Assembly: GCA_016186625.1 (NCBI GenBank) | Contig: JACPLG010000008.1 | Location: 80,689 to 144,688 of the forward strand | DNA: 64,000 bases | DNA from: Candidatus Levyibacteriota bacterium | GTDB lineage: Bacteria > Patescibacteriota > Microgenomatia > Levybacterales > UBA12049 | Reading direction: 5' to 3' | Shown: piece after piece, positions 345-64,000 of the stretch | Layout: each line of letters begins with the position of its first letter | How positions within the stretch are numbered: the first letter of the stretch is position 1 | Notes under the pieces: generated by a model | Seen by the model: only the letters and a program-made list of their open reading frames with translations | Told to the model about the DNA's origin: nothing | Databases searched by the model: none | Translations under genes and position numbers: made by a program

Positions 345-2411
345 TTATTTTACTCTTGCGTTAAACTTTGAGGAAATTGCACTGATTACTTGTTCTCTAA
401 TTTCTGAAACTTCTTTGCTTGTTAAATTTCTATCTTCAGCTTGATAAATAATGTGAAAAGTTCTGGCATTTTCAAACTGGTCCTTAAGCTTCACTTCTCT
501 TATCAAAAAACTCTGAAGAGATATCTCCTCAATAACATCTTGAGTTGAAACTGCCTCATCCAAAACAAAAGTAATATCCTCAAAAACTGCCGGAAATTTT
601 GCCAGAGGTTTGTAAACTTTTTTATTGGTTGCGTTTTTAAGCAAGATTTCAAAGTTAATTTCAAAATCTATGAGATTGCTATTTAGAATTTCAATATATC
701 CGACATTTTCGTTTTCAATTGAGATTTCTGCTCCTCCTTCTACTCTATTTTTAACTTTGTAATTTTTTATCTCCAAATCGTCAAATAGGGCTTCGATTAG
801 TCCTTTTACTTCAAAGAAAGAGACTCCCGTTTTTTTAATAAGTCCGGCAAGAGTTAACTTTTCTTTAGGCAGGTTTTGCCCTGAGCCGATTCGGTCTGAG
901 CGGGTTCGACGTCCTGAGCTCACCGTCGAAGGACTCACGGTCGAATGACTTGTCGAACGGGCTTTTTGACTTTTATGATAGGTATTGGCAAGTTCAAAGA
1001 TTTTGATAATTTCTTTTGCCTTATTGTTCTCAGCTACCTCGAGAAGGCTTGGAACAAGAGTATTTCGAAGATATACCATATCCGAAGTTAATGGATTTTT
1101 AAGCTTAATGGCATTATTAATTGGACCGTCAAATAAATCCTCAGAAACCAGGGAATATGTGTAAACCTCAGTGTATCCCCAGTATTTAAGTGCGCTTTTA
1201 ATTCTATCTTCCCAGTAGAAATTGTTGGCATATGGAATCGTTTTGTCACTTAAGAAAGATGGGATAATACTTGGTATCCTATGGTACCCATAAATTCTTG
1301 CTATTTCTTCAATGATGTCTTCTTCTATTTTTATATCATTAATCCGTTCTGATGGAACCTCAACCTTAAAAAAACCTAAATGAGCGCTGACTTTAAAACC
1401 AAGTTTTTGAAGAATTTCAGTTGCGATATTTGGATTTATCCCAACTCCAATTATCTTGTTAATCTTCTCAAGAGAAACCTTTACAGTTTGAGTTTTTGGT
1501 TTGTTAGGATAAACATCCAGGATTTTTGAGACAACTTTTCCCTGTGCAATTTGCTGATAAAGTTCAATTCCTCTTTTTAGCGCAAGTTCCATAAACTCCG
1601 GATCCACTCCCTTTTCGTTAACAATGGCCGCTTCAGTTCTAATTCCAAGACTCATTGAAGTTTGTCTGATACGATCGGGATTATTATTATCAAGAAAAAA
1701 TAGTATTCTTTTGGTTTTTTCATTAACAACAGAATTTGCTGTTCCCATAATTCCCAAAAGGTCGATTATTTCCCCTTCCCCATTGTCAGCAACTATATCT
1801 CCACCCAGTAATCGATACTCTTTCCCATCCAAAGTTGTAATAATTTCTCCTTTTTTTGACCCTCTTATTATCATCTCTTTAGTGTTTAATAAATCGTAGT
1901 CAAACACATGAGCGGGGTGGCCAATTTCGCGCATTACATAATTTGTGACATCAACCAGATTATTAAGACTTCTTATTCCGGAAAGTTCCAGACGATTGGC
2001 AATTTCTTTTGGGCTTTTGCCAATATTAACTTCCAAGACCACAGCCATAATTCTATTTACCAGTTTTGGGTCATTTTTGATTTCAATCGGGAAAGAAATA
2101 TCTCCTTCCGCAACTTTTGGTGTTTTTGGCGGAATGTATTTTGCCGCAATTCCATTCCCTGAAAGTGAAGCCGTTGCCTCTTTTGCAATTCCTGCAACAG
2201 ACATTAAATCCGGCCTGTTGGTTGTAACCTCGATATCATAAGTGTAATCATCTCCAGCTTTCCCGCCTGCAACGCCTGCGCTAGCATAGCGGGCAGGTTC
2301 TGTCTGCCCTACCGAAACAGAAGTCAGGGAAAGTTGCCGGGCAATTTCTGAGGCACTTGCTTTTGTTTCCAAAAATTCTCTTAACCAAGAGTCAACGATT
2401 TTTATTTGCAT
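345..2411 (-). CDS. pheT: Phenylalanine--tRNA ligase beta subunit
   Basis: 688 aa; N-terminal MQIKIVDSWLREFLE..., B3/B4 and B5-like regions, C-terminal FDX-ACB-like domain. Directly downstream of pheS on the same strand. ATG start at 2409-2411. Confidence 0.9.
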   Translation of the reverse strand: MQIKIVDSWLREFLETKASASEIARQLSLTSVSVGQTEPARYASAGVAGGKAGDDYTYDIEVTTNRPDLMSVAGIAKEATASLSGNGIAAKYIPPKTPKVAEGDISFPIEIKNDPKLVNRIMAVVLEVNIGKSPKEIANRLELSGIRSLNNLVDVTNYVMREIGHPAHVFDYDLLNTKEMIIRGSKKGEIITTLDGKEYRLLGGDIVADNGEGEIIDLLGIMGTANSVVNEKTKRILFFLDNNNPDRIRQTSMSLGIRTEAAIVNEKGVDPEFMELALKRGIELYQQIAQGKVVSKILDVYPNKPKTQTVKVSLEKINKIIGVGINPNIATEILQKLGFKVSAHLGFFKVEVPSERINDIKIEEDIIEEIARIYGYHRIPSIIPSFLSDKTIPYANNFYWEDRIKSALKYWGYTEVYTYSLVSEDLFDGPINNAIKLKNPLTSDMVYLRNTLVPSLLEVAENNKAKEIIKIFELANTYHKSQKARSTSHSTVSPSTVSSGRRTRSDRIGSGQNLPKEKLTLAGLIKKTGVSFFEVKGLIEALFDDLEIKNYKVKNRVEGGAEISIENENVGYIEILNSNLIDFEINFEILLKNATNKKVYKPLAKFPAVFEDITFVLDEAVSTQDVIEEISLQSFLIREVKLKDQFENARTFHIIYQAEDRNLTSKEVSEIREQVISAISSKFNARVK
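895..962. repeat. MITE-like TCGAA/CCTGAG-rich repeat inserted in-frame in pheT
   Basis: gttcgacgtcctgagctcaccgtcgaaggactcacggtcgaatgacttgtcgaacggg shares GTCGAATGACTTGTCGAA with the element at 32565-32596. Translated as the low-complexity peptide ARSTSHSTVSPSTVSSGRRTRSDRIGSGQ in a PheT linker. Confidence 0.45.
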
Positions 2412-3628: not shown

Positions 3629-5860
3629 ATGCCCGATAATCAGGAGCAAATTGTTGTAAAAGAAAAATCAGGATTTATAAGAAGGGTTCTTGGACCAATT
3701 TTATCCCCCTTTGATAAGCTTTTTAGTATGCTTCCCAAGGATAAACGAAAACTAACACTCCTAATTATTACCCTGGCAATTCCCATAACTGTAATAGCTG
3801 CTCTTATTCAGCAGGAGCTAAGGGGAAGAGCTGCTGGAGAAAGACAGCTCATCATGGGAATGTCTAACAGAGGTGGTTATAGTAGTAAGGATGTTAATGT
3901 TCAAGGAATTAAAGAAGCAATAGAAACAATCAGGAGAGAAACAGGACGATATCCTGCCATTTATCCATTATGGGTAAATTTTGAAGAAAGTCCAGGAAGT
4001 GGTGACCCGAGAGCCTCTTTCCCTAGTAAAGAAATTACAGATTATTTAGATGCCAGAGGTATTGCTGTTGCTATTTTTATGCAGCCCGTTGGCCCTGGGA
4101 TTGGCAGAAATGACGGAAGGTTTATTTTCTCCTCTAATACCTCTTCGTCAGTACCAAATGGCCAGATTAAGTTTGATTCTTCAAATCCCTCAAGTATAAC
4201 AAGGATATATGTAAGTAAAACTTCTTCAGGCACTGAAAATCCTGCAGGGCTTGCTAATACCTGGGTTCCTGGCGCAAAGGCTTCTGTGTTCGGCTCTGAT
4301 TCAAGTGGGAATGTAGCCTATACTGATTCAAATTTTTTTGGTTTCACTGTTAACTCTAAGGCAGACAGCGGGACTTTCTGGACGCTCGGAGTAACTGTAA
4401 ATAGAGCTGGTAGTTTGTCCGGTATTTTTTCAAACGGAAGGCCTGTCTTCATTACGATGGCCGATACTTTTGCCAAAAAATACAGCAATCAATCAATCGC
4501 AAACGGATCGTTTGATCCATTTCTGCGGCAACTTGCACAGGCTGCAAGATCGTATGGGAAACCTGTTCTTCTTAGATATGCTCATGAAATGAATGCACAT
4601 TGGTTCCCATGGACAGTTGGACAACCAGACCCAAAAAAAAGTTATGGAAGATACGTGTATTTTAATCAGGGAAATACGCCTTCGAATTATGTAGCAGCAT
4701 GGAGACGTGTTTATACAGTTATAAAATTGGAAGCTCCGAATGTTAAATTATTCTGGGTTCCATCAAGAGTGGCTCCGACAAAACTTGATATATATGATGG
4801 TTTTTACCCCGGGAATAACTACGTTGATTATGTAGGGTTTGATGCTTATAGCGGTCTAGGCGGAAATAACCCTAAGAACTATATTTCTATGTATGACTCC
4901 TACAAAAGAGTTATGGAAAAGGTACTACAGCTTTCAAATAACAGAAAACCTGTTTTTATAGGTGAAACTGGAGTCAATTCTATAAATGTACCAAGCGGTT
5001 TTAGTAGAGCGGATTGGGTGAGGCGAGGATATAATGATGCATATAACGCATGGCCCAAGCTCGCAGGAATTATTTATTTCAACTTTGATATGAGAGATAC
5101 TGAGAACAATAACTGGTTATTATCTGCTTCTCCCGAAGCGTTGTCAGCATATAGAGATATAGCTTCAAGAGCCAAGTTTCAGGGTAAATTTGAGGAAGGA
5201 TCCACACCAACACCAACCCCAGTCCTTCCAACAGTTCCGCCAATTATAGTATCGCCTACCCCATCCCTAGGTATTTCAGCCTTCATAGAGTCAGGTGGAA
5301 GTGTGGTTATGGAAGCTGAGAATAATGACAAAAGATTTAATAGAGGCAATTATAGGTGGGCAGGTGCGGCACCGGATACTCCACTCACAGCAACCTCTGG
5401 ATATGTGAACGAAGGAACTAGAAAAGGATACACAGCAGTAAGACCAAATGATGATAAAGTAACTTATTTTGAAGGAGGATATAAAAAGGGTCCTGAAGTG
5501 GTGTATAACATTAATTTCTCTTCAACTGGAACATATTATGTTTACATGAGAAGCTCAGGTCCTGATAGCAAATCAGACTCAGCTCACTATGGTCTTGATG
5601 GCGCCTATGATGGCACTATAGCCTTATATTATAGAGGGGAGGGGGGTGCTTCAACTAATTGGCAGTGGAAAGGAAATAATAATGATGGAACAAAAGCTAG
5701 AATTAGAGTTACTACTCCTGGAATTCATACGTTCCATATATACATGCGAGAAGACGGGACACAAATCGATAGAATTCGACTTTTTAAAAATTCTTCCTGG
5801 ACTCCATCACCAGGTCCTGCTGCAGATGGTCCTTCAGAAAGTCTAAGAGGGAAATTCTAG
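3629..5860 (+). CDS. Membrane-anchored glycoside hydrolase family 26-like protein with PT-linker and C-terminal beta-sandwich (CBM-like) domain
   Basis: N-terminal TM helix; LLRYAHEMNAHWFPW matches the GH26 acid/base signature (AHEMN..W..W); FIGETGVNS matches the nucleophile GE.G region; TPTPTPVLPTVPP linker. Confidence 0.55.
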   Translation: MPDNQEQIVVKEKSGFIRRVLGPILSPFDKLFSMLPKDKRKLTLLIITLAIPITVIAALIQQELRGRAAGERQLIMGMSNRGGYSSKDVNVQGIKEAIETIRRETGRYPAIYPLWVNFEESPGSGDPRASFPSKEITDYLDARGIAVAIFMQPVGPGIGRNDGRFIFSSNTSSSVPNGQIKFDSSNPSSITRIYVSKTSSGTENPAGLANTWVPGAKASVFGSDSSGNVAYTDSNFFGFTVNSKADSGTFWTLGVTVNRAGSLSGIFSNGRPVFITMADTFAKKYSNQSIANGSFDPFLRQLAQAARSYGKPVLLRYAHEMNAHWFPWTVGQPDPKKSYGRYVYFNQGNTPSNYVAAWRRVYTVIKLEAPNVKLFWVPSRVAPTKLDIYDGFYPGNNYVDYVGFDAYSGLGGNNPKNYISMYDSYKRVMEKVLQLSNNRKPVFIGETGVNSINVPSGFSRADWVRRGYNDAYNAWPKLAGIIYFNFDMRDTENNNWLLSASPEALSAYRDIASRAKFQGKFEEGSTPTPTPVLPTVPPIIVSPTPSLGISAFIESGGSVVMEAENNDKRFNRGNYRWAGAAPDTPLTATSGYVNEGTRKGYTAVRPNDDKVTYFEGGYKKGPEVVYNINFSSTGTYYVYMRSSGPDSKSDSAHYGLDGAYDGTIALYYRGEGGASTNWQWKGNNNDGTKARIRVTTPGIHTFHIYMREDGTQIDRIRLFKNSSWTPSPGPAADGPSESLRGKF

Positions 5861-8900: not shown

Positions 8901-9015
8901 GAAAGGAGAGGTAATTACCTTAGGAATTACCTCATCCGGCACAAACCCAGCAAAATACTATTCAGTAGAAGCCAATAGATCAAATAGGCCCAAACTTGAA
9001 GTAGAATATAATTAA
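5923..9015 (+). CDS. Large secreted subtilisin-like serine protease (peptidase S8) with I9-like propeptide, a ~350-aa beta-propeller-like insertion and a C-terminal beta-sandwich domain
   Basis: VVILDSGIDYTHVDL (Asp), GHGTNVAGVAAG (His), GAGNGG (oxyanion Asn), GTSMSTPHVTGLAAL (Ser). N-terminal TM; acidic DEEDEDEDED stretch; PPATPTPTAAPTPS linker. Confidence 0.7.
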   Translation: MSYYYKFNNRLEEVKSRSQKLTKLLKKNKKSIIAVLILIVFPVFVIASQQRQETRQFASEKNKEEKTPPPSPKGYIVEFSSSPAIAVSSDEEDEDEDEDKLDKTLLESSYESNKNKVIAEHQRAKSDVLEKIGKKSFDLSKSKKGDKKVVLLSEFRSIFNGIAIDADEEDIEKIKKSSYVKAVYPNLAVETTLMDSIPLIKADKVWQDVLDSTGAPVTGKGVNVVILDSGIDYTHVDLGGTVIEERPLEKISNKPIINSYNTDSAFSYNQNRIAYASGADQVTIYSFDTKSSEDVSLGTSDITDPSLRLVLLAADELFYISGSFKVVNLYLKNLSSGQVKKIANLVQVDQQGQEDLALISGIASKFTFSADKLYYERQTGAVDGNKNILYALFAYDLSTGQETKILDDSPYVRFAKASENKLVYSVYDPQAANFTKNVVRDLDTGEEEDIIFPGVGPAIDFKNNLILSKSYGSSRTYDLYNIETKEQRKLVFDDSESAQINSPNINDLYYKLPKGLIGDNVIFFERNDLTYQIVAFDLQKNKYSIINLKTFSGKVAGDGKKVCFAAKLDFEIYCHNFDTEFAYPLPSQTYNEKVKGGINFFDSGKDGLDDLGHGTNVAGVAAGSGSLKGAAPGAFLYSYKVVSGEGFGYVDKIIAGIDAAVQTNFDLDPTNDIKVINISLGATCAGKYSDICGPADPMSRSVNNAVGSGLVVVAGAGNGGASGDLISSPGTARRAITVGAIDKSKKIAQFSSRGPVIWNDKDLKKPDVVAPGVEICSAQLFYIYRSFFRCFDDKHIKQSGTSMSTPHVTGLAALILQAHPDWSPAQVKKAIKDTAVDLDYNYNRQGAGLINGTKLFKKYPPATPTPTAAPTPSSRKVNLFPTADSFVRKDRPKSNFGTLKYIQTDSSPDTISFIKFNLRSLADKNIISAKLYLKVDDPSQATQSLKRGAGNNWTQRNINYNNKPSFNATITTFKANKRNKIIELDLINLVRNRKGEVITLGITSSGTNPAKYYSVEANRSNRPKLEVEYN

Positions 9016-9028
9016 AATCTACCTAAAC

Positions 9029-9265
9029 CTAGCCCCGTTCTTTACCTCTCATGGTTCCGTTCCAATCTGTCCACGGCACATCAGTTCTAGGTGCTTCTTT
9101 GGTTTCTCGATCTGCCAAAGCGTCTCTATATGCTTTTCCTGCATCATAAACAGGGAAGACGTGTCTTGCACCTGTATGGTCCCTTACAACCTCTGTTCCA
9201 ACTGGTATCGATGCTGACAGTCCACTTTCATTAATTCCTCCTCCAATTGTTTGTCCTGTTTCCAT
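9029..9265 (-). CDS. Hypothetical small protein P1 (paralog of the ORF at 13544-13840)
   Basis: Internal ATG (METGQTIGGG...) preceded by SD AAGGGTGGTGA; TGARHVFPVYDAG and PWTDW motifs resemble RVGHAFAVDGG and PWTEH in P2. GC-richer than flanks. Confidence 0.35.
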   Translation of the reverse strand: METGQTIGGGINESGLSASIPVGTEVVRDHTGARHVFPVYDAGKAYRDALADRETKEAPRTDVPWTDWNGTMRGKERG

Positions 9266-11218: not shown

Positions 11219-12401
11219 TTTCCTCTTTAACCCTTATTAAAAAATTGGAAAGATTAAGTTTTCCTAAATCTTTCCCATCCCTAGTTCTAAGCGAAATTTC
11301 GTTTTTCTCAATTTCCTTGTCCCCAATTATAACTAAATATGGAATTTTTTGCAAAGTCGCTTCCCTAATTTTTGCCTGAAGGGTATCGGATTTGCCAAAA
11401 ACTTCGGTTCGTATTCCGGCATTTCTTAGTTTGTCAGCGATTTTTTTTGCATAGCCTGTATGTTTATCTGTGATCGGAAGAATGGCCACCTGGACAGGAG
11501 AGAGCCAGAGAGGAAATGCTCCCTGATAATGTTCGGTCAAAATTCCAATAAATCGTTCAAGTGAGCCTGTAACAGCACGGTGTACAATTACTGGCCTTTT
11601 TGGTTTTCCATCCTTGTCAATGTATTCAAGCTTCAGCTTCTGCGGAATTTGAAAATCCAGCTGGATTGTTGCCAACTGCCAGTCTCTTCCTTGCGAATCT
11701 TTAATCTGAATATCAATTTTTGGTCCGTAAAAAGCTCCGTCTTTTTCTTTGACGCCGTATTTAACTTTTGCACTCTTAAGAGCTTTTTCAAGATCTTTTT
11801 CTGCTTCTTCCCATAATTTTTCCTCCCCCATTGCATTATCCGGCTTAGTCGATAGGAAAAATTCTGAGGCGAATCCAAAAATTTTATAAAAATTTTCAAT
11901 AAAAACCAACAACTTCTCAATTTCGTCCTGGATTTGATCAGGTCTTATGAAGTGATGCGCATCATCGATTGTGAATTGTCGTACTCTGAAAAGTCCGCCA
12001 AGTACCCCAGACAATTCGTTTCTATGTAATACTCCAAAATCCGCAATTCTAAGCGGTAGATCAACATAGCTTCTTACTCTGGATTGATAAATAAGGCATG
12101 CCTCCGGACAATTCATTGGTTTTAGCGAATAGAACTCTTTGTCAACCTCAAGTTTAAACATATTCTTATTGTAAAAATCCCAGTGACCAGAACGCTTGAA
12201 GAGATCGTTTTTAACCATTACGGGGGTAAAAACTTCCAAATACCCTTCGTTTAAGAGGTTATTTCTAAGATATTCCTGAAGAATCCTGTAAATTATATAT
12301 CCTTTATGGTGCCAAAAAACTGCGCCGGGTGCCTCTTCATGGAAAGAAAAAAGGTCAAGTTCCGCTCCGATTTGTCTGTGATCCTTAAGCTGATTAGTCA
12401 T
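11202..12401 (-). CDS. thrS: Threonine--tRNA ligase, catalytic plus anticodon-binding domains only (no N-terminal TGS/editing domains)
   Basis: Begins DHRQIGAELDLFSFHEEAPGAVFWHHKGY, aligning to E. coli ThrRS from about residue 243; 399 aa vs ~640 aa full length. Confidence 0.85.
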   Translation of the reverse strand: MTNQLKDHRQIGAELDLFSFHEEAPGAVFWHHKGYIIYRILQEYLRNNLLNEGYLEVFTPVMVKNDLFKRSGHWDFYNKNMFKLEVDKEFYSLKPMNCPEACLIYQSRVRSYVDLPLRIADFGVLHRNELSGVLGGLFRVRQFTIDDAHHFIRPDQIQDEIEKLLVFIENFYKIFGFASEFFLSTKPDNAMGEEKLWEEAEKDLEKALKSAKVKYGVKEKDGAFYGPKIDIQIKDSQGRDWQLATIQLDFQIPQKLKLEYIDKDGKPKRPVIVHRAVTGSLERFIGILTEHYQGAFPLWLSPVQVAILPITDKHTGYAKKIADKLRNAGIRTEVFGKSDTLQAKIREATLQKIPYLVIIGDKEIEKNEISLRTRDGKDLGKLNLSNFLIRVKEEIEKKV

Positions 12402-13543: not shown

Positions 13544-13840
13544 TCAAATACAGTTAGTTCGAGGTCTTGGCATGACTTTGGCCATATTCGGTGCCTCTTC
13601 CGGAGGCGGAACATGCATTATTCCTCCATCCACTGCAAATGCGTGACCAACACGCATTGTTATACTCTCTCCGTCAGGAGTTCTTCCTGTGATAAATTCT
13701 TGTGGTGTACCACCATCTATTAATAAACCCGCTCTTCTATGTTCTGTCCATGGGTTTGCTTGTGTTACGCCTGTCATTTTATCCGCTGCATCAGCCGCTG
13801 CCCTTGATTCTCCTGTTTCAAATCCTGTCTCCGTTACCAT
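13544..13840 (-). CDS. Hypothetical small protein P2
   Basis: 98 aa; strong SD GGTAGGGGGTGAT 8 nt upstream of ATG; immediately follows P3 stop; GC-richer. Confidence 0.4.
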   Translation of the reverse strand: MVTETGFETGESRAAADAADKMTGVTQANPWTEHRRAGLLIDGGTPQEFITGRTPDGESITMRVGHAFAVDGGIMHVPPPEEAPNMAKVMPRPRTNCI

Positions 13841-13857
13841 AATTAATCACCCCCTAC

Positions 13858-14463
13858 CTAAAATTTCCCCTTTCCTTTCATTCGCAATTTTCCATTAGTG
13901 GATTCTCTTATTCCGTATCCAACTCCAGCTAATTTAGCTAATTCTTGCCCGATCTCATCATTTCTGCGGAAGGCGTTGACTACCAATACAGTTACTTTTT
14001 TTCTGGGATCTCTTACATCCGGTAATTCGTCTCTTGCGAAGAATGATGTCATGTCACTACCCACTCCAGTTCCTCTAATTTGCGCCCGGTACATTGTTGC
14101 TAACTCTGGTGTGTCTGGAATTGTTGTTAACCCCTGCCTATGTCCTTCGTTATTTGCCAGCCTTTCACCGTCTCTTTTTACCGCTTCCATTAATTCTGGA
14201 ATTTGGTTTGGAGGAAGTCTCCTGGGGTTGATAGAGAAAGTTAAGCTTGCACGTAACGCATCGGCTATAAACCAGCTACCGCCGTTTCCAGATATTGGTT
14301 CTACGCTTATTTTATCTACCTTTGTAGGGTCTATGTATGGATGTCTAGGAGAGTCTGCAATCATTCGCGCAATCACAGCCGCATCATGGCGGGTAAACTC
14401 ACCGGCTCTAAAAAGATCAGGTCTTTGACCTGTTTGTCTTGGTTCAAAATCTTGTCTTCCCAT
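13858..14463 (-). CDS. Hypothetical protein P3 (start taken at internal ATG; listed ORF begins with TTG)
   Basis: 201 aa, Arg/Asp/Gly-rich, no recognised motif; preceded by terminator-like hairpin 27 nt upstream. Confidence 0.4.
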   Translation of the reverse strand: MGRQDFEPRQTGQRPDLFRAGEFTRHDAAVIARMIADSPRHPYIDPTKVDKISVEPISGNGGSWFIADALRASLTFSINPRRLPPNQIPELMEAVKRDGERLANNEGHRQGLTTIPDTPELATMYRAQIRGTGVGSDMTSFFARDELPDVRDPRKKVTVLVVNAFRRNDEIGQELAKLAGVGYGIRESTNGKLRMKGKGKF

Positions 14464-16488: not shown

Positions 16489-17049
16489 TTATAAGGCTAG
16501 GGCTAGGGTAGACTTTCCGTTTCTGAGTCTATATGCTTCAATTCTATTCATAAAAAAAGTAACCCTCTGTGCCCATGTAGGTGATGCAGCATATCTATGA
16601 CCAATCAAATATGGGTTGGAATCTGGATTTTCTCCAAGATAGTTTTGTCTAAGTCCTTTTGAAATTGTTTCAATTCCCTCACTCCATGAGGCAAATCTTA
16701 TAACATTATTTCCATATACTCCCCAACCCCATCCGTTGTAAGAGTTGTAAGGGATATTTTTTCCAAAAGTTGATTCAAGTCCGGCAATTGAGGCAACAAG
16801 TCTCCAGTCAAGGCTGTATTTATCTGCGCTTTCCACAAAATCAGCGGCATAAGGTGCAAGAGGAGAGCCATAGCTTTCTAAAAAGCCCTCAAGAATTTCC
16901 GTCCTATTATCAACAGGTTTTTGAGTTATTGTGGGATTTAGGGTAGCAGAAGAGCCTGATGCCTGTTCAAAAGCATAGGAATCCCCAGATACTTTGGAAA
17001 GCATTAAAATAACTAAAACAAAAGAGACTATTGCTTGGAATTTCTTCAT
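16489..17049 (-). CDS. Secreted glucosaminidase-domain (FlgJ/LytD-like) peptidoglycan hydrolase
   Basis: Signal/TM then ASIAGLESTFGKN...NGWGWGVYG, resembling the glucosaminidase LESGWG...FGI motif. Confidence 0.45.
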   Translation of the reverse strand: MKKFQAIVSFVLVILMLSKVSGDSYAFEQASGSSATLNPTITQKPVDNRTEILEGFLESYGSPLAPYAADFVESADKYSLDWRLVASIAGLESTFGKNIPYNSYNGWGWGVYGNNVIRFASWSEGIETISKGLRQNYLGENPDSNPYLIGHRYAASPTWAQRVTFFMNRIEAYRLRNGKSTLALAL

Positions 17050-17247
17050 AGACGAATAATTAAAATCCCCCGCCAAGCGTTATACTTTGCGGGGAATTAA
17101 AAAATCCTAACGTATGCATTTGGAAAAGCACACCTTAGGATCTAGTTGCGCATTATACTACTAACTATAGGATTTGTCAAGTACTTACTAGAGGATAAAA
17201 TTGCTAATTTTGAGGCTAGAGACCGTAAGTTTGCCCCATGCGTGAGG

Positions 17248-17817: not shown

Positions 17818-18076
17818 GTAAATTATTCTGTCATTTCCCAGGTTTTGTGTCAACTGATCTCTACTATTTCAAACTACTAGACAATTGAGTAATTGAGGCT
17901 ATTCTGTTACAATGTCATTTGATCTTTTTAATTCCAAATAGTGCTCGCCTAGAGCGCTGGCATAGTTACCACCGCTCTAGAGCAACCTTATAGGAAGGAT
18001 CGTCGGGAAGCGGACCGAAGGGAGCTCGCCTGCTTGACAGGGGCGGGAACTGTAGGTTCTGTCCCGAGACTCACTC

Positions 18077-18148
18077 GCGGATGTAGTTCAGCGGTAGAAT
18101 GTCTCGTTGCCAACGAGAAGGTCGCCGGTTCGATCCCGGTCATCCGCT
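18077..18148 (+). tRNA. tRNA-Gly (anticodon GCC)
   Basis: GCGGATGTAGTTCAGCGGTAGAATGTCTCGTTGCCAACGAGAAGGTCGCCGGTTCGATCCCGGTCATCCGCT. Confidence 0.8.
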
Positions 18149-19650: not shown

Positions 19651-19651
19651 C

Positions 19652-20578: not shown

Positions 20579-20941
20579 TCAGGCTAAGGCGGACAAGTCC
20601 CTCAGTGCCTACAATAATTATCTGATTCGAGAGGGAGACCCAGATGATGGATCGGCCGTAAGATCTCGCCCTCTTGGAATTTGAGGATCTGGTCTTCTTC
20701 CTGTAAGAAAAAAATATCTTATTGCTTCAGTCTCATGAGCGATTGCCCTTGGGCTCCCTGGTAAACCAGGATATCTGGGAGGCGGGCAACCAACGAGTGC
20801 GCGATCAGCAACAAATCTTTCTGGCATTTTCAATATACATAATACTTTATTACCCTTTTCAAATCAACTTCCTTGCCTCTTCCCCACGACTTTTGTATAA
20901 TTGTTTTCGATATAAGATAATTGCTCGCCTAATAAAGAGGA

Positions 20942-21023
20942 GCGAAATCGTTGGATTGAGAGTGTCGATTTCGCTACCCCTAAAGGGAAATCGTTGGGAA
21001 AAACCGCGAGGTTTGTCCCATTT
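20942..21023 (+). repeat. Conserved tRNA-upstream element (copy 1): two hairpins directly 5' of tRNA-Phe
   Basis: GCGAAATCG-TTGGATTGAGAGTGT-CGATTTCGC ... GGGAAAAACCGCGAGGTTTGTCCC. Confidence 0.5.
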
Positions 21024-21096
21024 AGCCGAGTTAGCCAAGTTGGTCAAGGCATCCGCCTGAAGAGCGGACTATCTCAGTTCGATTCTGAGACTCGGC
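21024..21096 (+). tRNA. tRNA-Phe (anticodon GAA)
   Basis: GCCGAGTTAGCCAAGTTGGTCAAGGCATCCGCCTGAAGAGCGGACTATCTCAGTTCGATTCTGAGACTCGGCA. Confidence 0.8.
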
Positions 21097-31093: not shown

Positions 31094-31097
31094 TGTA

Positions 31098-31120
31098 CCT
31101 TCCCACATGGAAAGTGGGAA
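31098..31120. repeat. REP-1 copy flanking RAYT-1
   Basis: CCTTCCCACATGGAAAGTGGGAA. Confidence 0.7.
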
Positions 31121-31128
31121 CACAGAAT

Positions 31129-31776
31129 TCAGTCATCGATGTCGATTAGAGAATCAAAAAGCGCCGGGTCAATATCATTAGTTTCCTCGACAAAACTTTG
31201 ATAGTCTCTTTCTGGATTCGATCGCGCAAAATAAGAAAGAATAAAACCTGTATCACAAAAAACATGTTTTTCCCCATAAATATAGTTACAATAAGACGAA
31301 TATGGGTAAACTCTACATTCACACATGGAAAGTGGGAAAGGGTTTCGGTGAATATATTTTGACAGTTGCAGAAGATGCCCATCGCTTTCAATATACTTTG
31401 CTTTAAAACTTCCTTGAAACAGTGGTCCTACTCTATCGTACTTAGTATTGAAATACCTTGTATAACTGTCTGATAATTTTCTTAGAAAGTGTGTAATGCC
31501 ATTATCGGTTAATTGTTTGACTAGGAGATGAAAATGGTTAGGCATCAAGCAAAAACAAAAAATACTTACTAGTTCTGTTTGGCTGTCTACTTTCTTAAGT
31601 TTAACGATTCCCCTTCTGTAGTCAGATAGTTTCATGGGCTGAGGAGATTTTCGATAAAAGTCCAGAGTTTCTAAAAATCTAAGATAGTCCCACCTATCCA
31701 AAAAGATATCTCTTTTTTCCACACCTCTATTATAAATGTGGAAGAATCCGTCGGTGATAAAAGGAGGATTCTTCAT
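31129..31776 (-). CDS. REP-associated tyrosine transposase (RAYT; IS200/IS605 TnpA-like HUH Y1 transposase), family 1
   Basis: HIYNRGV, MPNHFHLLV (HUH), YIHRNP (catalytic Tyr); flanked by REP-1 copies on both sides. Confidence 0.8.
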   Translation of the reverse strand: MKNPPFITDGFFHIYNRGVEKRDIFLDRWDYLRFLETLDFYRKSPQPMKLSDYRRGIVKLKKVDSQTELVSIFCFCLMPNHFHLLVKQLTDNGITHFLRKLSDSYTRYFNTKYDRVGPLFQGSFKAKYIESDGHLLQLSKYIHRNPFPLSMCECRVYPYSSYCNYIYGEKHVFCDTGFILSYFARSNPERDYQSFVEETNDIDPALFDSLIDIDD

Positions 31777-31806
31777 AAGCGTAATATATTAATTTAACCA
31801 TAAGTA

Positions 31807-31831
31807 CCTTCCCACATGTCAAGTGGGAAGG
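31807..31831. repeat. REP-1 copy flanking RAYT-1
   Basis: CCTTCCCACATGTCAAGTGGGAAGG. Confidence 0.7.
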
Positions 31832-32598: not shown

Positions 32599-32669
32599 AG
32601 CGGGTGAAGGGAATCGAACCCTCGTATCCACTTTGGAAAAGTGGTGTTCTGCCATTGAACTACACCCGC
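32599..32669 (-). tRNA. tRNA-Gly (anticodon TCC)
   Basis: GCGGGTGTAGTTCAATGGCAGAACACCACTTTTCCAAAGTGGATACGAGGGTTCGATTCCCTTCACCCGCT. Confidence 0.8.
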
Positions 32670-34566: not shown

Positions 34567-34642
34567 TGCTTCAATTATAGCATATTTTGTTTGATTTTGA
34601 GCGGATTTCGAGGTAAAATAGTATGGTAACCTTTTAGATTAA

Positions 34643-34730
34643 CGCAAAATCGCTGGATTGGGAGTGTCGGTTTTGCGAATCAATAAAGGGAAAATCGTTG
34701 GGAAAAAACCGTTAGGTTTTGTCCCATTTA
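34643..34730 (+). repeat. Conserved tRNA-upstream element (copy 2)
   Basis: CGCAAAATCG-CTGGATTGGGAGTGT-CGGTTTTGCG ... GGGAAAAAACCGTTAGGTTTTGTCCC; stem changes relative to copy 1 are compensatory. Confidence 0.5.
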
Positions 34731-34772
34731 GGCCCTGTAGCTCAACGGATAGACCTGCCCGCTAAGCAGCAT
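34731..34772 (+). pseudogene. tRNA 5'-fragment (acceptor + D-arm + degenerate anticodon arm)
   Basis: GGCCCTGTAGCTCAACGGATAGACCTGCCCGCTAAGCAGCATG; no T-arm. Confidence 0.35.
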
Positions 34773-34845
34773 GCGCCCGTAGCTCAACGGATAGAGCAAG
34801 ACGGTTCTAACGTCAAGGTTGGGGGTTCGATTCCCTCCGGGCGTG
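34773..34845 (+). tRNA. tRNA-Arg (anticodon TCT)
   Basis: GCGCCCGTAGCTCAACGGATAGAGCAAGACGGTTCTAACGTCAAGGTTGGGGGTTCGATTCCCTCCGGGCGTG. Confidence 0.75.
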
Positions 34846-34855
34846 CAAGTATGGT

Positions 34856-34911
34856 AGGCAGGGCGAGTGCGTTCTAAGCACCAGGTTGGGGGTTCGATTC
34901 CCTGCCTGCCG
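34856..34911 (+). pseudogene. D-arm-less partial tRNA-Arg(TCT) copy
   Basis: GGCAGGG-CGAGTGCGTTCTAAGCAC-CAGGTTGGGGGTTCGATTCCCTGCCTGCC; same anticodon loop GTTCTAA as the neighbouring tRNA. Confidence 0.4.
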
Positions 34912-35072
34912 GCAGGCAGGCCTCCGGGGTCGCACTTCGGCATCAGTCCGGCAAACTCATGACAAGAGCTCAGTGCAAGCTGAGTTTGACGAAGCGACCT
35001 GAGGGATGAGAAGTTTACCCTGAGTACTTCGGTTTACTCAGCATAAACGAAGTCGAAGGGATTCCCTCCAGG
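34912..35072. repeat. MITE-like repeat with partial tRNA 3' duplicate (GATTCCCTCCAGGGTC)
   Basis: cgaagtcgaagggattccctccagggtc; CCTGAG and TCGAA motifs as in the other copies. Confidence 0.35.
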
Positions 35073-35073
35073 G

Positions 35074-35541
35074 TCACAGATGTCTTCCCCTGAGGTAAGC
35101 TTCGGCAGCCTCTCTCATTGAGTGTTCAGGGAATTCTCCTGTACGATTATGCGCAAACCGTTGATAAATACTGCCACGTAAAAGCTCGAGTTTTTCGGTT
35201 GTTAAAAATCTGAAGTCATTTGCTAAAGCAAATCCCTCTCCAACAACTTCTATTACTTTTTCCATAGGTACATCGTGAGACGCCCGAACATTATCTGGAT
35301 GAATTCTATCAGCCACAGATTTAATTGCTTGCAGCTTTGATTGATCTTCCAATAAAGCTTCTCGTAACTCTAAAGGATTTTCACCAGTTTCTCTGACTAT
35401 AAGGGCTATAACTGCTCCTTGCGCAGTAACGGAAGCAGGACAAGCCATGCTAGCTCTAATGAAATAAAAATAGGCTATTTCCGCCATACTCCTTGGGAAG
35501 CCTTCACTCATGTCAGTTTGCGCAGTTTCAGCTGTACTCAC
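35074..35541 (-). CDS. Hypothetical protein
   Basis: 155 aa, GC-richer; no motif. Confidence 0.35.
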   Translation of the reverse strand: MSTAETAQTDMSEGFPRSMAEIAYFYFIRASMACPASVTAQGAVIALIVRETGENPLELREALLEDQSKLQAIKSVADRIHPDNVRASHDVPMEKVIEVVGEGFALANDFRFLTTEKLELLRGSIYQRFAHNRTGEFPEHSMREAAEAYLRGRHL

Positions 35542-37847: not shown

Positions 37848-37903
37848 TTTACACCTTTACACCCCGGGTGTGGATTTACCTTGACACCCCAGGGATTTAG
37901 ATT
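37848..37903. repeat. REP-2 copy flanking RAYT-2
   Basis: CTTTACACCTTTACACCCCGGGTGTGGATTTACCTTGACACCCCAGGGA. Confidence 0.65.
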
Positions 37904-37917
37904 TAAAGTTAGTTTAT

Positions 37918-38580
37918 ATGCCAAGAAGGAGATTTGTTTTAGCTACCAATGAAACTTACCACATATATAACAGGTCTGTTGCTAAGGAGTCGATATTTTC
38001 TTCAGCTACTTGTTTAAACAAGATAATCGAGATATCAGACTATTATCGATACCATCAAGAGCTTAGGCTGTCTAAGTTTAAAAAATTACCCGTTGATCAG
38101 AAAAAGAGCTATTTAGATTCGATTAAGAACAGGGAGAAACTTGTAGACATCTATTCATTTGCTTTTATGCCTAATCACTACCATTTCTTATTGAAACAAC
38201 TGGTCGATAATGGAATCGTAAATTTTATTTCTAATTTTCAAAATAGTTTTGCTAAATACTTTAATATAAAAAATGATCGAAACGGTGCTTTATTTCTGAA
38301 CCCCTTTAAAGGAAAAAGAATAGAGTCTGAAGACCAGTTTGTTCATGTCTCAAGATATATTCACCTAAATCCTGTCACTTCATACTTGGTTGAGTTTAAA
38401 GACTTACCAGATTATCCTTGGACTTCTTTTAGAATCTACCATTACGGTTTAAATTTATTTGTAAATACTAAGCTGATACTGGAGAGTTTTAAATCCATAA
38501 AGAGTTATTACAATTTTGTGGAAGATCAAGTAGATTATCAAAGAAGTCTTGCTTTAATAAAGGATTTAGTTCTTGAGTGA
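37918..38580 (+). CDS. REP-associated tyrosine transposase (RAYT), family 2
   Basis: HIYNRSV, MPNHYHFLL (HUH), YIHLNP (Tyr); flanked by inverted REP-2 copies. Confidence 0.8.
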   Translation: MPRRRFVLATNETYHIYNRSVAKESIFSSATCLNKIIEISDYYRYHQELRLSKFKKLPVDQKKSYLDSIKNREKLVDIYSFAFMPNHYHFLLKQLVDNGIVNFISNFQNSFAKYFNIKNDRNGALFLNPFKGKRIESEDQFVHVSRYIHLNPVTSYLVEFKDLPDYPWTSFRIYHYGLNLFVNTKLILESFKSIKSYYNFVEDQVDYQRSLALIKDLVLE

Positions 38581-39392: not shown

Positions 39393-39467
39393 GGTGGATG
39401 TAGCTCAGTGGTAGAGCTCCTGGTTGTGGTCCAGGTGGCCGCGGGTTCGATCCCCGTCATCCACCCA
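39393..39467 (+). tRNA. tRNA-His (anticodon GTG) with G(-1)
   Basis: gGTGGATGTAGCTCAGTGGTAGAGCTCCTGGTTGTGGTCCAGGTGGCCGCGGGTTCGATCCCCGTCATCCACCCA. Confidence 0.8.
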
Positions 39468-39898
39468 TTCGACTCACTTCGTTCGCTCATGGCTGTAAGC
39501 CGGAGTCGAATGTCCTGAGTTCATCGAAGGACAAAATGTCTTTTTTCATTTACATTCTCCGTAGCTCATCCAATCAACTATATATTGGACAAACGAATAA
39601 TTTTGAAAATCGGACAAAGCAACATATTGCAAAAGATTGTAAAGCAGCGAAATTTACTAAAGATCATGAAGACTTCAAGCCCGTTTATAAAGAGGAGTAC
39701 CCTACAAGATTAGAAGCAATGAGAAGAGAAGCACAGATTAAAAAATGGTCAAGAGCAAAAAAAGAAGCGCTTATTGCAGGAAATTTGAAAGAACTTAAAA
39801 ATTTAAGCAAAAAGAAATAGTAAGTGAGATCATCGAGCCTGAGCCTGAGGTTCACTTCAGAGTCGAAGACCTGTCGAACCATCCCCGTCATCCACCCA
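39468..39898 (+). mobile_element. Minimal tRNA-integrated cassette: GIY-YIG nuclease gene bounded by a 16-bp direct repeat of the tRNA-His 3' end and ATTCGAC.../...GTCGAACC termini
   Basis: CCCCGTCATCCACCCA at 39453-39468 and again at 39883-39898; left end ATTCGACTCACTTCGTTCGCTCA, right end GAGTCGAAGACCTGTCGAACCAT. Confidence 0.55.
39536..39820 (+). CDS. GIY-YIG nuclease-domain protein (UPF0213/YhbQ-like)
   Basis: FFIYILRSSSNQLYIGQTNNFENRTKQH matches the GIY-YIG core. Confidence 0.7.
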   Translation: MSFFIYILRSSSNQLYIGQTNNFENRTKQHIAKDCKAAKFTKDHEDFKPVYKEEYPTRLEAMRREAQIKKWSRAKKEALIAGNLKELKNLSKKK

Positions 39899-63390: not shown

Positions 63391-63396
63391 AATGCG

Positions 63397-63438
63397 TGCA
63401 CCCGTAGCTCAATGGATAGAGCACATCGCTTCGGATCA
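63397..63438 (+). pseudogene. tRNA-Arg(TCG) 5'-fragment (acceptor + D-arm + anticodon loop CTTCGGA, no T-arm)
   Basis: GCACCCGTAGCTCAATGGATAGAGCACATCGCTTCGGATCAC; no matching 3' half downstream. Confidence 0.4.
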
Positions 63439-63478
63439 CAAATTGATTTCAAAGCACAAATAACTTATAATTTGAGCT

Positions 63479-63916
63479 ATGAAGAGATGTAGTAGGTGTA
63501 AAAAAGAAAAGTCTATTGAAGATTTTAATTTTAAAAATAGAGCTAAGCAGACTCGGCAATATCAGTGCAAAGATTGCAGCCGAATATATATAAGGTCACA
63601 TTATGAAAGAAACAAGAAGTACTATCTTTTAAAAGCAAAGCTCAGAAATGAAGCAAACAGAAAGGAAATCAAAGCATATATATGGAATTTTCTCAATAGT
63701 AATCCATGCGTAGACTGTGGGGAGAAAGATCCGATAGTTTTAGAATTCGATCACTTATCGGACAAGATAGCAGATATCTCCGCAATGTACAGAAATTATA
63801 ATTTGCAAAAAGTTAAAAGTGAAATTGAAAAGTGTCAGGTCAGATGCGCAAATTGTCATAGAAGAAAAACGGCAAATGAGCAGGGATGGAATAAAAATTT
63901 TGCCTCTGTAGCTTAA
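63479..63916 (+). CDS. HNH endonuclease with N-terminal CxxC...CxxC zinc finger
   Basis: CVDCGEKDPIVLEFDHLSDK...CQVRCANCHRRKT (HNH). The 3' end overlaps the tRNA-Arg 5' end by ~15 nt. Confidence 0.7.
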   Translation: MKRCSRCKKEKSIEDFNFKNRAKQTRQYQCKDCSRIYIRSHYERNKKYYLLKAKLRNEANRKEIKAYIWNFLNSNPCVDCGEKDPIVLEFDHLSDKIADISAMYRNYNLQKVKSEIEKCQVRCANCHRRKTANEQGWNKNFASVA

Positions 63917-63973
63917 CGGATAAAGCGCTGGTCTTCGGAACCAGTAATGCGGGTTCGATTCCTGCCAGGGGCG
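63902..63973 (+). tRNA. tRNA-Arg (anticodon TCG)
   Basis: GCCTCTGTAGCTTAACGGATAAAGCGCTGGTCTTCGGAACCAGTAATGCGGGTTCGATTCCTGCCAGGGGCG. Confidence 0.75.
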
Positions 63974-64000
63974 CAACGTATTGCTGCAAGGTAGCACGTT

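Follow-up and report, generated by a model that had tools for sequence, protein, structure and literature searches.

A movable two-hairpin element in the promoter-proximal leaders of Levybacteria tRNA genes

A stretch of 64,000 nucleotides from a Candidatus Levyibacteriota genome (assembly GCA_016186625.1, contig JACPLG010000008.1, positions 80,689 to 144,688; hereafter the window), with a G+C content of about 40% and 13 tRNA genes, was found to carry five copies (A to E) of a two-hairpin element, each lying directly 5' of one of the 13 tRNA genes, on the sense strand of that tRNA and 3' of a sigma-70-type promoter. An AI-2E transporter encoded in the window is 100% identical to a protein that NCBI lists for a Candidatus Levybacteria metagenome-assembled genome, which places the DNA in the Microgenomates. 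The element is a real repeat family, and selection acting on the sense strand has shaped its fold. Having moved between sites, it behaves as a movable module and no fixed part of any tRNA gene. It occupies promoter-proximal leaders, mostly of tRNAs, which from their position we read as transcribed, and it appears specific to a subgroup of Candidatus Levybacteria, in the Candidate Phyla Radiation (CPR). The explanation that we favour, at a probability of about 0.4, is that of a portable structured leader-RNA module with a role of its own at the RNA level, whose 3' half would serve as a protein platform and which would be released from pre-tRNAs.

Copies in the window and their common fold

Three of the copies had been recognized in an original prediction made from the letters of the DNA, upstream of tRNA-Phe, of the tRNA-Arg(TCT) locus and of tRNA-Leu(GAG). 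All three are present at these places, with the stem 1 arms (AGCGAAATCG/CGATTTCGCT, CACAAAATCG/TGATTTTGTG and CGCAAAATCG/CGGTTTTGCG) and the 15-nt loop (yTGGATTGrGAGTGy) that had been quoted for them, but the total fell short, as covariance models added D and E. A first model, built from seven copies, detected copy D at E = 9e-9 and copy E only weakly, and a second model (R2), built from 19 hand-checked copies, detected copy E at E = 1.5e-5.

Copy A (20941..21024, plus strand; 92.7 bits, E = 7.5e-21) is followed by tRNA-Phe at 21025. Its stem 1 arms (20941-20950 and 20966-20975) enclose a loop at 20951-20965, and a linker (20976-20994) leads to hairpin 2 (20995-21020) and the tail ATTTA; a promoter-like TTGCCT-17-TATAAT at 20873..20901 (plus strand, 10/12 matches) places the predicted start of the leader about 33 nt 5' of stem 1. 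Copy B (19777-19652, minus strand; 77.5 bits) precedes tRNA-Leu(GAG) at 19651, with stem 1 arms at 19777-19768 and 19752-19743, the loop at 19767-19753 and hairpin 2 at 19685-19660, and an extended -10 element, TTGATAGAAT, is recognizable in the letters at 19793-19784 (minus strand). An element of about 85 nt with two hairpins had been described, and the two hairpins do occur in each copy, but copy B has an extra hairpin of 38 nt between linker and hairpin 2 (19724-19687, minus strand). Copy C (34643..34730, plus strand; 83.3 bits), with stem 1 arms at 34643-34652 and 34668-34677, the loop at 34653-34667, hairpin 2 at 34699-34726 and the promoter TTGATT-17-TAAAAT at 34591-34619 (plus strand), does belong to the tRNA-Arg(TCT) locus, although the gene that it precedes is not the one called by ARAGORN at 34773 but an outer, interrupted tRNA-Arg(TCT) gene that starts at 34731. 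The second hairpin had been given a GNGA loop and an end at the tRNA +1; the hairpin is there, but its loop in copy C is GTTA, and it ends 4-8 nt before the +1 in copies A to C, 10 nt before it in D and 9 nt in E.

The two copies added by the models are more divergent. Copy D, of a type II subfamily (32768-32670, minus strand; 63.1 bits with the second model), is followed by tRNA-Gly(TCC) at 32669 and has an outer stem (32768-32764/32730-32726), an inner stem (32760-32755/32736-32731), a loop of 18 nt and a hairpin 2 (32706-32680) with an A-U to G-C compensatory change, behind the promoter TTGAAT-18-TAGAAT (32824-32795, minus strand). Copy E (17949..18076, plus strand; 35.3 bits), which precedes tRNA-Gly(GCC) at 18077, has stem 1 arms at 17949-17956 and 17973-17980 and a long hairpin 2 (18003-18067) that holds an insertion of about 38 nt (18010-18047, plus strand) at an A•G mismatch.

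Apart from large insertions, which are of three kinds, all copies measure 86-91 nt. Stem 1 has 10 bp; at the loop it is closed in all copies by C-G/G-C, and the other positions vary freely yet stay paired. Loop 1 is mostly of 15 nt (13-18 overall), with the sequence yUGGAUUGrGAGUGy in the commonest subfamily and other sequences in other subfamilies. Stem 1 is followed by the conserved stretch AUC-NNU-AAAGGRAAAUCG-UUGGGAA, and the whole 3' half, about 48 nt, is nearly invariant and ends in the 10-bp hairpin 2 (UGGGA-A-AAACC/GGUUU-G-UCCCA), after which comes a tail that is usually AUUU(A/G). The sixth position of hairpin 2 is an A•G mismatch in 19/19 copies, and the core together with this mismatch is retained in the divergent subfamilies (D, E and copy L017_2, handles with L denoting contigs of relatives). 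The same insertion of about 37 nt is located exactly at the mismatch in copy E, copy L010_2 and the copy of L030, that is, in three genomes and before three different tRNAs.

That the covariation among copies reflects selection on structure had been part of the original prediction, and the larger set of copies bore this out. In an alignment of 19 sequences (A5), standard pairs fill 94.1% of the pair cells, against 83.7% in shuffles, none of which came as high (0/500), and in slid-register controls pairing was at most 58.5%. Both sides have changed in 11 pairs, namely 8 of the 10 pairs of stem 1 and three of hairpin 2; the latter three flank the A•G mismatch in a hairpin that is otherwise mostly invariant, with changes in D, L010_1 and E, and L010_1 differs by such a compensatory change from the other copies, including the standalone L017_1. 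With 12 cells of G·U and none of A·C in stem 1, folding can be assigned to the sense strand, either as RNA or as single-stranded DNA, and to neither the duplex nor the opposite strand. Copies A to C have folding z-scores of -2.8 to -3.3 against shuffles and covariance-model E-values of 1e-17 to 1e-21. At orthologous loci the 60 nt upstream are 46-60% identical, which is background (47 ± 5% for unrelated window segments), linker and hairpin 2 are 69-96% identical and the tRNA itself 86-100%.

These data also bear on the suggestion that the element is a protein-binding promoter element at the DNA level, in which hairpin 2 would be the inverted-repeat site of a dimeric transcription factor 3' of the promoter. 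The arms of hairpin 2 are indeed nearly invariant and form an imperfect palindrome (TGGGAAAAACC-N4-GGTTTGTCCCA). However, pairing is strand-specific, the hairpin shows three compensatory double changes, its one invariant asymmetric position carries A in one arm and G in the other in 19/19 copies, the loop varies in length and the half-sites can be set apart by the 37-nt insertion, as three genomes show, while stem 1 covaries freely and has the G·U asymmetry described above. We therefore consider an operator very improbable.

The statement that no named bacterial element has this form also stood. With gathering thresholds applied, Rfam 15 returned only tRNAs from the whole window; in the surroundings of copies A, B and C, at E <= 10, matches were at chance level, the best being CRISPR-DR57 with 21 bits against a gathering score of 39, and no description of the element was found in the literature searched. 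Several finer features were tried and rejected. C, L001, L005, L026 and L030 do not keep the 5' arm of a third mini-hairpin, CCC-UAAA-GGG, and the AAAGG tract is therefore taken as single-stranded. A small open reading frame (ORF) from a UUG after the Shine-Dalgarno-like AAAGGGA varies in frame and length and has stops in the hairpin loop of C, L005 and L030. T-box-like pairing of loop 1 with the tRNA gave energies (z -2.8 to +1.3 over the copies) that were not better than those of shuffled loops except in copy A, at no recurring site. As for a phage origin, the core pattern had 0 matches in viral contigs.

Placement behind promoters and movement between loci

Homologues of two proteins of the window led to contigs of relatives, and public genome and metagenome collections were scanned with one strict pattern, which brought up L001, L002 and L005. 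The covariance-model search that the original prediction had proposed was run on 279 kb (16 non-redundant Levybacteria loci) with the R2 model and did yield more paired copies, 20 in all, with nothing further above noise. Five are those of the window and 15 lie on related contigs; 15 are adjacent to a tRNA, 4 stand alone and 1 is found at gvpA, the standalone copies having the top scores against the model. On the related contigs the element precedes tRNA-Arg(CCT) in L001, a Candidatus Levybacteria metagenome-assembled genome identical to L004; tRNA-Leu(TAG) in L002 (a small contig, identical to L003), L006 and L010; tRNA-Gly(GCC) in L011, L017 and L018; tRNA-Gly(TCC) in L026, L028 and L030; and a gvpA-type gene in L005, a 2-kb metagenome contig.

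All of the tRNA-adjacent copies (15/15) are in the sense orientation, and their hairpin 2 ends 4-10 nt before the tRNA +1. Promoter-like sites, some of them judged by eye, are found 2-35 nt upstream of stem 1. For A, C, D and L010_2 the distance is 15-35 nt, and several copies have the -10 element just 2-6 nt 5' of the stem. The tRNA genes of the window that have no element show a -10 element of the TGnTATAAT type 8-11 nt from the mature 5' end. The promoters of C and D and the DNA upstream of them are shared with contig L023, where the same tRNAs, free of the element, start 8-10 nt after the -10, and therefore the element lies between a resident promoter and its tRNA. A promoter carried by the element itself was rejected on the same grounds, as the distance to the -10 varies from 2 to 35 nt and the promoters of C and D recur at the empty L023 sites. 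To judge from its position, after the promoter, before the +1 and on the same strand as the tRNA, the element is almost certainly part of the pre-tRNA 5' leader. The 64-kb window itself contains no RNase P gene.

All standalone copies (n=4) are found where two glucosaminidase-like genes are separated by a spacer. That of L002 has the orientation of the genes, and those of L010, L017 and L018 have the reverse one, the antisense copy abutting the stop codon of the upstream gene; L010_1 has a promoter-like site on its own strand. In the window the orthologous spacer holds only a remnant of 12-13 nt, gcATGGGGCAAAC (17229..17242, minus strand; 11/12 bases by eye), which is probably what is left of a decayed standalone copy, at the site where L010, L017 and L018 have the intact antisense one. 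The copy of L005 is preceded by a good promoter and followed by the ribosome-binding site and start codon (ATG) of a gas-vesicle gene (PF00741, E = 4e-18). This GvpA-type gene (1745-1996, plus strand), with a Levybacteria-type element as its 5' untranslated region (5' UTR), is on a contig of uncertain origin, only 2 kb long, and one would not expect such genes in a CPR bacterium. The original prediction had considered a tRNA leader concerned with processing or regulation, and had counted copies away from tRNAs as evidence against itself. Such copies exist in part, as four standalone ones, three of them antisense to the flanking genes, and one in a gvpA 5' UTR, and with the element also dispensable at tRNAs, an element dedicated to tRNA processing or regulation was not upheld.

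The presence of the element at orthologous tRNA genes is patchy. At Leu(TAG) it is found in L002, L006 and L010 and is missing from the window, L008, L009, L011 and L014; at Leu(GAG) it is found in the window and is missing from L010 and L014. At Gly(GCC) three different subtypes occupy the window, L011 and L017, and L006, L008, L009, L010 and L014 have none; at Gly(TCC) the window has type II, L026, L028 and L030 have three type I variants and L023 has none. Nearest relatives tend to be found at different loci: C (Arg-TCT) is 93% identical to the copy of L030 (Gly-TCC), the copy of L001 (Arg-CCT) 90% to that of L005 (gvpA) and D (Gly-TCC) 80% to L017_2 (Gly-GCC). Taken together with the patchy presence, the fact that the closest relative is usually at another locus shows that the module has been copied between loci.

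Such a history is what would be expected of a selfish element of the REP/REPIN type, or of one derived from IS200/IS605 (PATE-like), moved as single-stranded DNA by an HUH/Y1 transposase. The hairpins would then be recognition structures for the enzyme, and tRNA leaders either a preferred target, where very active promoters leave the non-template DNA single-stranded, or a place in which an insert is safe because RNase P discards it. It is a close rival, which we regard as possible but doubtful. Besides the variable presence, the different subfamilies at one and the same tRNA and the nearest relatives at other loci (C/L030, L001/L005, D/L017_2), it is favoured by both orientations at the standalone site and the decayed remnant there, by strand-specific hairpins that would equally suit a single-stranded DNA substrate, by two Y1_Tnp genes in the window and by the lack of terminal inverted repeats, as in elements of the IS200/IS605 type: the first 25 nt compared with the reverse complement of the last 25 nt did no better than shuffles in 19/19 copies. 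The shape of a PATE is there, with different subterminal hairpins and no terminal repeats, but no autonomous, transposase-bearing element with these ends was found in the 279 kb, and no copy adjoins either Y1_Tnp gene of the window, both of which are bordered by other repeat families (D1; D2/D3). Conservation is highest in the central linker and the whole 3' half, beyond the ends, the core and the A•G mismatch persist in the older, divergent subfamilies, and the variant with 37 nt inserted in hairpin 2 still spread to three loci. The promoter-proximal, orientation-locked placement is left unexplained unless insertion is targeted, and we know of no REPs or Y1 elements that are either promoter-proximal or orientation-locked.

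In its behaviour the element is nevertheless most like REP/REPIN-type structured repeats, from which it differs in architecture and niche. It shares with REP, REPIN and BIME repeats (RAYT, Y1/HUH) the dispersal of short hairpin repeats with compensated stems in non-coding DNA, several subfamilies per genome, a patchy occurrence in relatives, the lack of terminal inverted repeats and target duplications, and the company of Y1 genes. However, it is 86-91 nt long, has two different hairpins and a conserved single-stranded linker, is locked in orientation 5' of tRNA genes next to promoters, where REPs lie 3' of genes (orientations are mixed only at the standalone site), and does not flank the RAYT-like genes, which own other repeats. 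Miniature inverted-repeat transposable elements (MITEs), Correia, ERIC, BOX and RPE repeats are likewise of about 100 nt, lie in transcribed intergenic regions, fold at the RNA level and sometimes affect the expression of neighbours. Unlike them, the element has no terminal inverted repeats and strongly prefers the promoter-tRNA junction, and no flanking direct repeat that would mark a target-site duplication was visible when the filled sites of C and D were aligned by eye with the empty L023 sites.

Targeting could be accounted for by a mobile structured element that homes, with fixed polarity, between the -10 element and the transcript start, mostly at tRNA genes. Insertion may take place into the single-stranded non-template DNA of open complexes at highly active promoters, and trimming by RNase P may make the insert harmless. 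Ty3 and TRE5, retroelements of eukaryotes, are directed to the upstream side of tRNA genes, and the element would be a bacterial counterpart by analogy. We hold this to be rather unlikely.

A proposed portable leader RNA and the alternatives to it

The leader-RNA module that we favour would work as follows. The module sits a few to about 35 nt 3' of a resident sigma-70-type -10 element and would be transcribed at the 5' end of whatever follows, which is mostly a tRNA, once the gvpA mRNA and sometimes nothing. In the folded sense RNA, a stem of 10 bp that carries a loop of 15 nt would be joined by a purine-rich, single-stranded linker (AUC..UAAAGGRAAAUCG) to the 10-bp A•G hairpin. A leader in such a position would, by the established course of tRNA maturation, be removed by RNase P, and in front of tRNAs the cut at the +1 would free a stable small RNA of about 90-120 nt. 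The unit under selection would be the module itself and not the downstream tRNA, the nearly invariant 3' half being most likely a recognition platform for a protein, and the module has been copied repeatedly between promoter-proximal sites. There are precedents for non-tRNA RNA that is co-transcribed with a tRNA, such as the 3'ETS-leuZ sponge of E. coli, the tRNA-snoRNA genes of plants and mascRNA/MALAT1. The element would resemble these in co-transcription and, presumably, in having an end set by a tRNA-processing enzyme, and it differs from them in being a 5' leader, in multiple copies, with one family across different tRNAs.

We favour this reading because every copy examined is in the sense orientation behind a promoter-like site, because conservation is highest in the centre and 3' half and not at the termini, because old, divergent copies keep the core and because an expansion hairpin is tolerated at the internal mismatch. 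Several observations weigh against it. Transcription and release are deduced from position. The element is dispensable at every tRNA examined, and L023, L014, L008 and L009 have it beside none of their 3-8 tRNAs each, which would not be expected of an important host RNA. Five copies in 64 kb exceed the apparent need of a trans-acting RNA, no protein partner, target or 3'-end signal for the standalone copies was found, and hairpin 2, which is followed by no more than AUUU(A/G), was never scored as terminator-like in terminator scans.

Alternatively, the element might act in cis on the downstream RNA, as a 5' stabilizer, a put-like antitermination or RNA-polymerase-modifying leader, a protein-dependent attenuator or a riboswitch. 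As a stabilizer, its terminal stem-loop and Shine-Dalgarno-like AAAGGGA would be comparable to STAB-SD. The promoter-proximal, sense position at the 5' end of the transcript would suit such a role, as would the ribosome-binding site right after hairpin 2 in the gvpA copy and the -10 element only 2-6 nt before stem 1 in several copies, which would put the stem at the very 5' end of the RNA. With the put RNA of phage HK022, the ompA 5' UTR and STAB-SD the element would share portability, a Shine-Dalgarno-like tract in the linker and two stem-loops right after the promoter, and in its two-hairpin layout it would resemble put RNA. It has, however, no sequence or Rfam similarity to them, standalone copies occur without a downstream gene, tRNAs need no stabilizing, and since tRNA leaders are quickly removed little would be gained by it. 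No downstream terminators were identified for the element to override and no terminator-like expression platform was seen, the element is dispensable at each tRNA locus examined, and 48 nt of invariant sequence exceed the need of a stabilizing hairpin. As to a switch, RAAATCGYTGG is common to the linker and the 5' arm of stem 1, and the 3' arm pairs with the linker (GGGAAAUCG) in some of the minimum-free-energy folds given by RNAfold, but this alternative pairing cannot form in L001, L005, D, E and L017_2, whose stems differ in sequence, and a riboswitch-like switch was rejected. On the whole we judge a cis-acting leader unlikely.

Also considered was a ribozyme that would form the 5' end of the tRNA by cleaving itself, given a compact, conserved and structured RNA core beside a processing site. 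No Rfam ribozyme was matched even at E <= 10, the spacing to the tRNA +1 varies from 4 to 10 nt and copies exist without a tRNA, and a ribozyme is in our opinion barely credible.

Bacterial tRNA leaders are normally short and unconserved, and it is unusual for a conserved, structured module of about 90 nt to recur before many different tRNAs. Should the leader have a function once released, it would add to the CPR, whose members have very few known regulators, a new small RNA or RNA-protein component peculiar to one lineage, and it would be a bacterial case in which tRNA-processing enzymes mature a non-tRNA RNA. If the element is selfish, it would point to a new niche for mobile DNA, the promoter-tRNA junction, and possibly to a new targeting mechanism. 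Either way, the covariance model can be used to annotate Levybacteria genomes, and the element is a marker of turnover at tRNA loci, to which the replacement-tRNA cassettes suggested below would also contribute.

Other rebuilt tRNA loci, repeats and neighbouring genes

The outer tRNA-Arg(TCT) gene downstream of copy C (34731-35077, plus strand) is an old gene that has been interrupted twice. Compared with the intact gene of L023, its three exon pieces show a single base difference, which is in the 3' tail. The D arm holds the first insertion (34754-34862), which is flanked by complementary CCTGCC/GGCAGG arms and within which a complete second tRNA-Arg(TCT) is found at 34773-34846. The second insertion, some 165 nt in the T arm, is flanked by a GATTCCCT direct repeat; Rfam has no family for either of the two. 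The 38-nt hairpin of copy B ends in GCATTAGCGGGCAGG, the reverse complement of CCTGCCCGCTAAGC, with which the first tRNA-Arg insertion starts (34754-34772, plus strand). The motif CCTGCCCGC, with one mismatch allowed, occurs 17 times in the window against 5.1 expected, which suggests a further family of small inserted hairpins.

At other loci an old 5' fragment of a tRNA, broken in the anticodon loop or the D arm, is separated by 14-470 nt from a complete downstream tRNA of the same anticodon. This arrangement was found in the window at 63396-63974 (plus strand) and 13490-13362 (minus strand), in L014 at about 11230-11420 and in L008 at about 13830-14010, and concerns tRNA-Val (window and L008), tRNA-Leu(TAG) in L014 and tRNA-Arg(TCG) in the window. 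The gap at tRNA-Arg(TCG) (63396-63974) holds an ORF of 145 aa (63479-63916) in which an HNH-like CxxC..DH..CxxCH pattern was recognized by eye, and to which Pfam gave no match. The sequence suggests a cassette of homing endonuclease and replacement tRNA that invades the cognate tRNA gene. Group I introns in the anticodon loop have been reported for Patescibacteria (PMC13011429), from which the tRNA cassettes described here differ. A gene for a GIY-YIG nuclease (39536-39820, plus strand; PF01541, E = 2e-19) lies beside tRNA-His (39394-39466); such a gene is also found beside tRNA-His in L023 and L028, and beside tRNA-Arg(TCT) in L030, and it may be a free-standing homing endonuclease tied to the tRNA locus.

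The two IS200-like Y1 transposase (RAYT-like) genes of the window lie at 31129-31776 (minus strand), with D2/D3 repeats, and at 37918-38580 (plus strand), with D1 repeats. The palindromic repeats that flank them (31096-31120, 31805-31829, 37855-37906 and elsewhere) include the families CTTCCCACATGGAAAGTGGGAAG (n=7) and TTTACACCCCGGGKGTGGATTTA (n=5), and by their sequence these genes with repeats of their own look like REPtron-type arrangements in a CPR genome.

In the 5' UTR of a glucosaminidase-like gene (16489-17076) a long hairpin, GATCCTAAGGTG...CACGTTAGGAT, followed by 6-7 T, is found at about 17150-17095 (minus strand). It recurs in L002 (about 995-1045), L010 (about 5150-5205) and L018 (about 2380-2430) and is kept where the spacer around it diverges. 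It matched no Rfam family and may be an attenuator or a riboswitch.

Lastly, tRNA-Gly(GCC) of L014 (about 8930-9034, plus strand) has, between promoter and +1, an unrelated hairpin-rich leader of about 100 nt, and it seems that the promoter-tRNA junction accumulates structured insertions generally.

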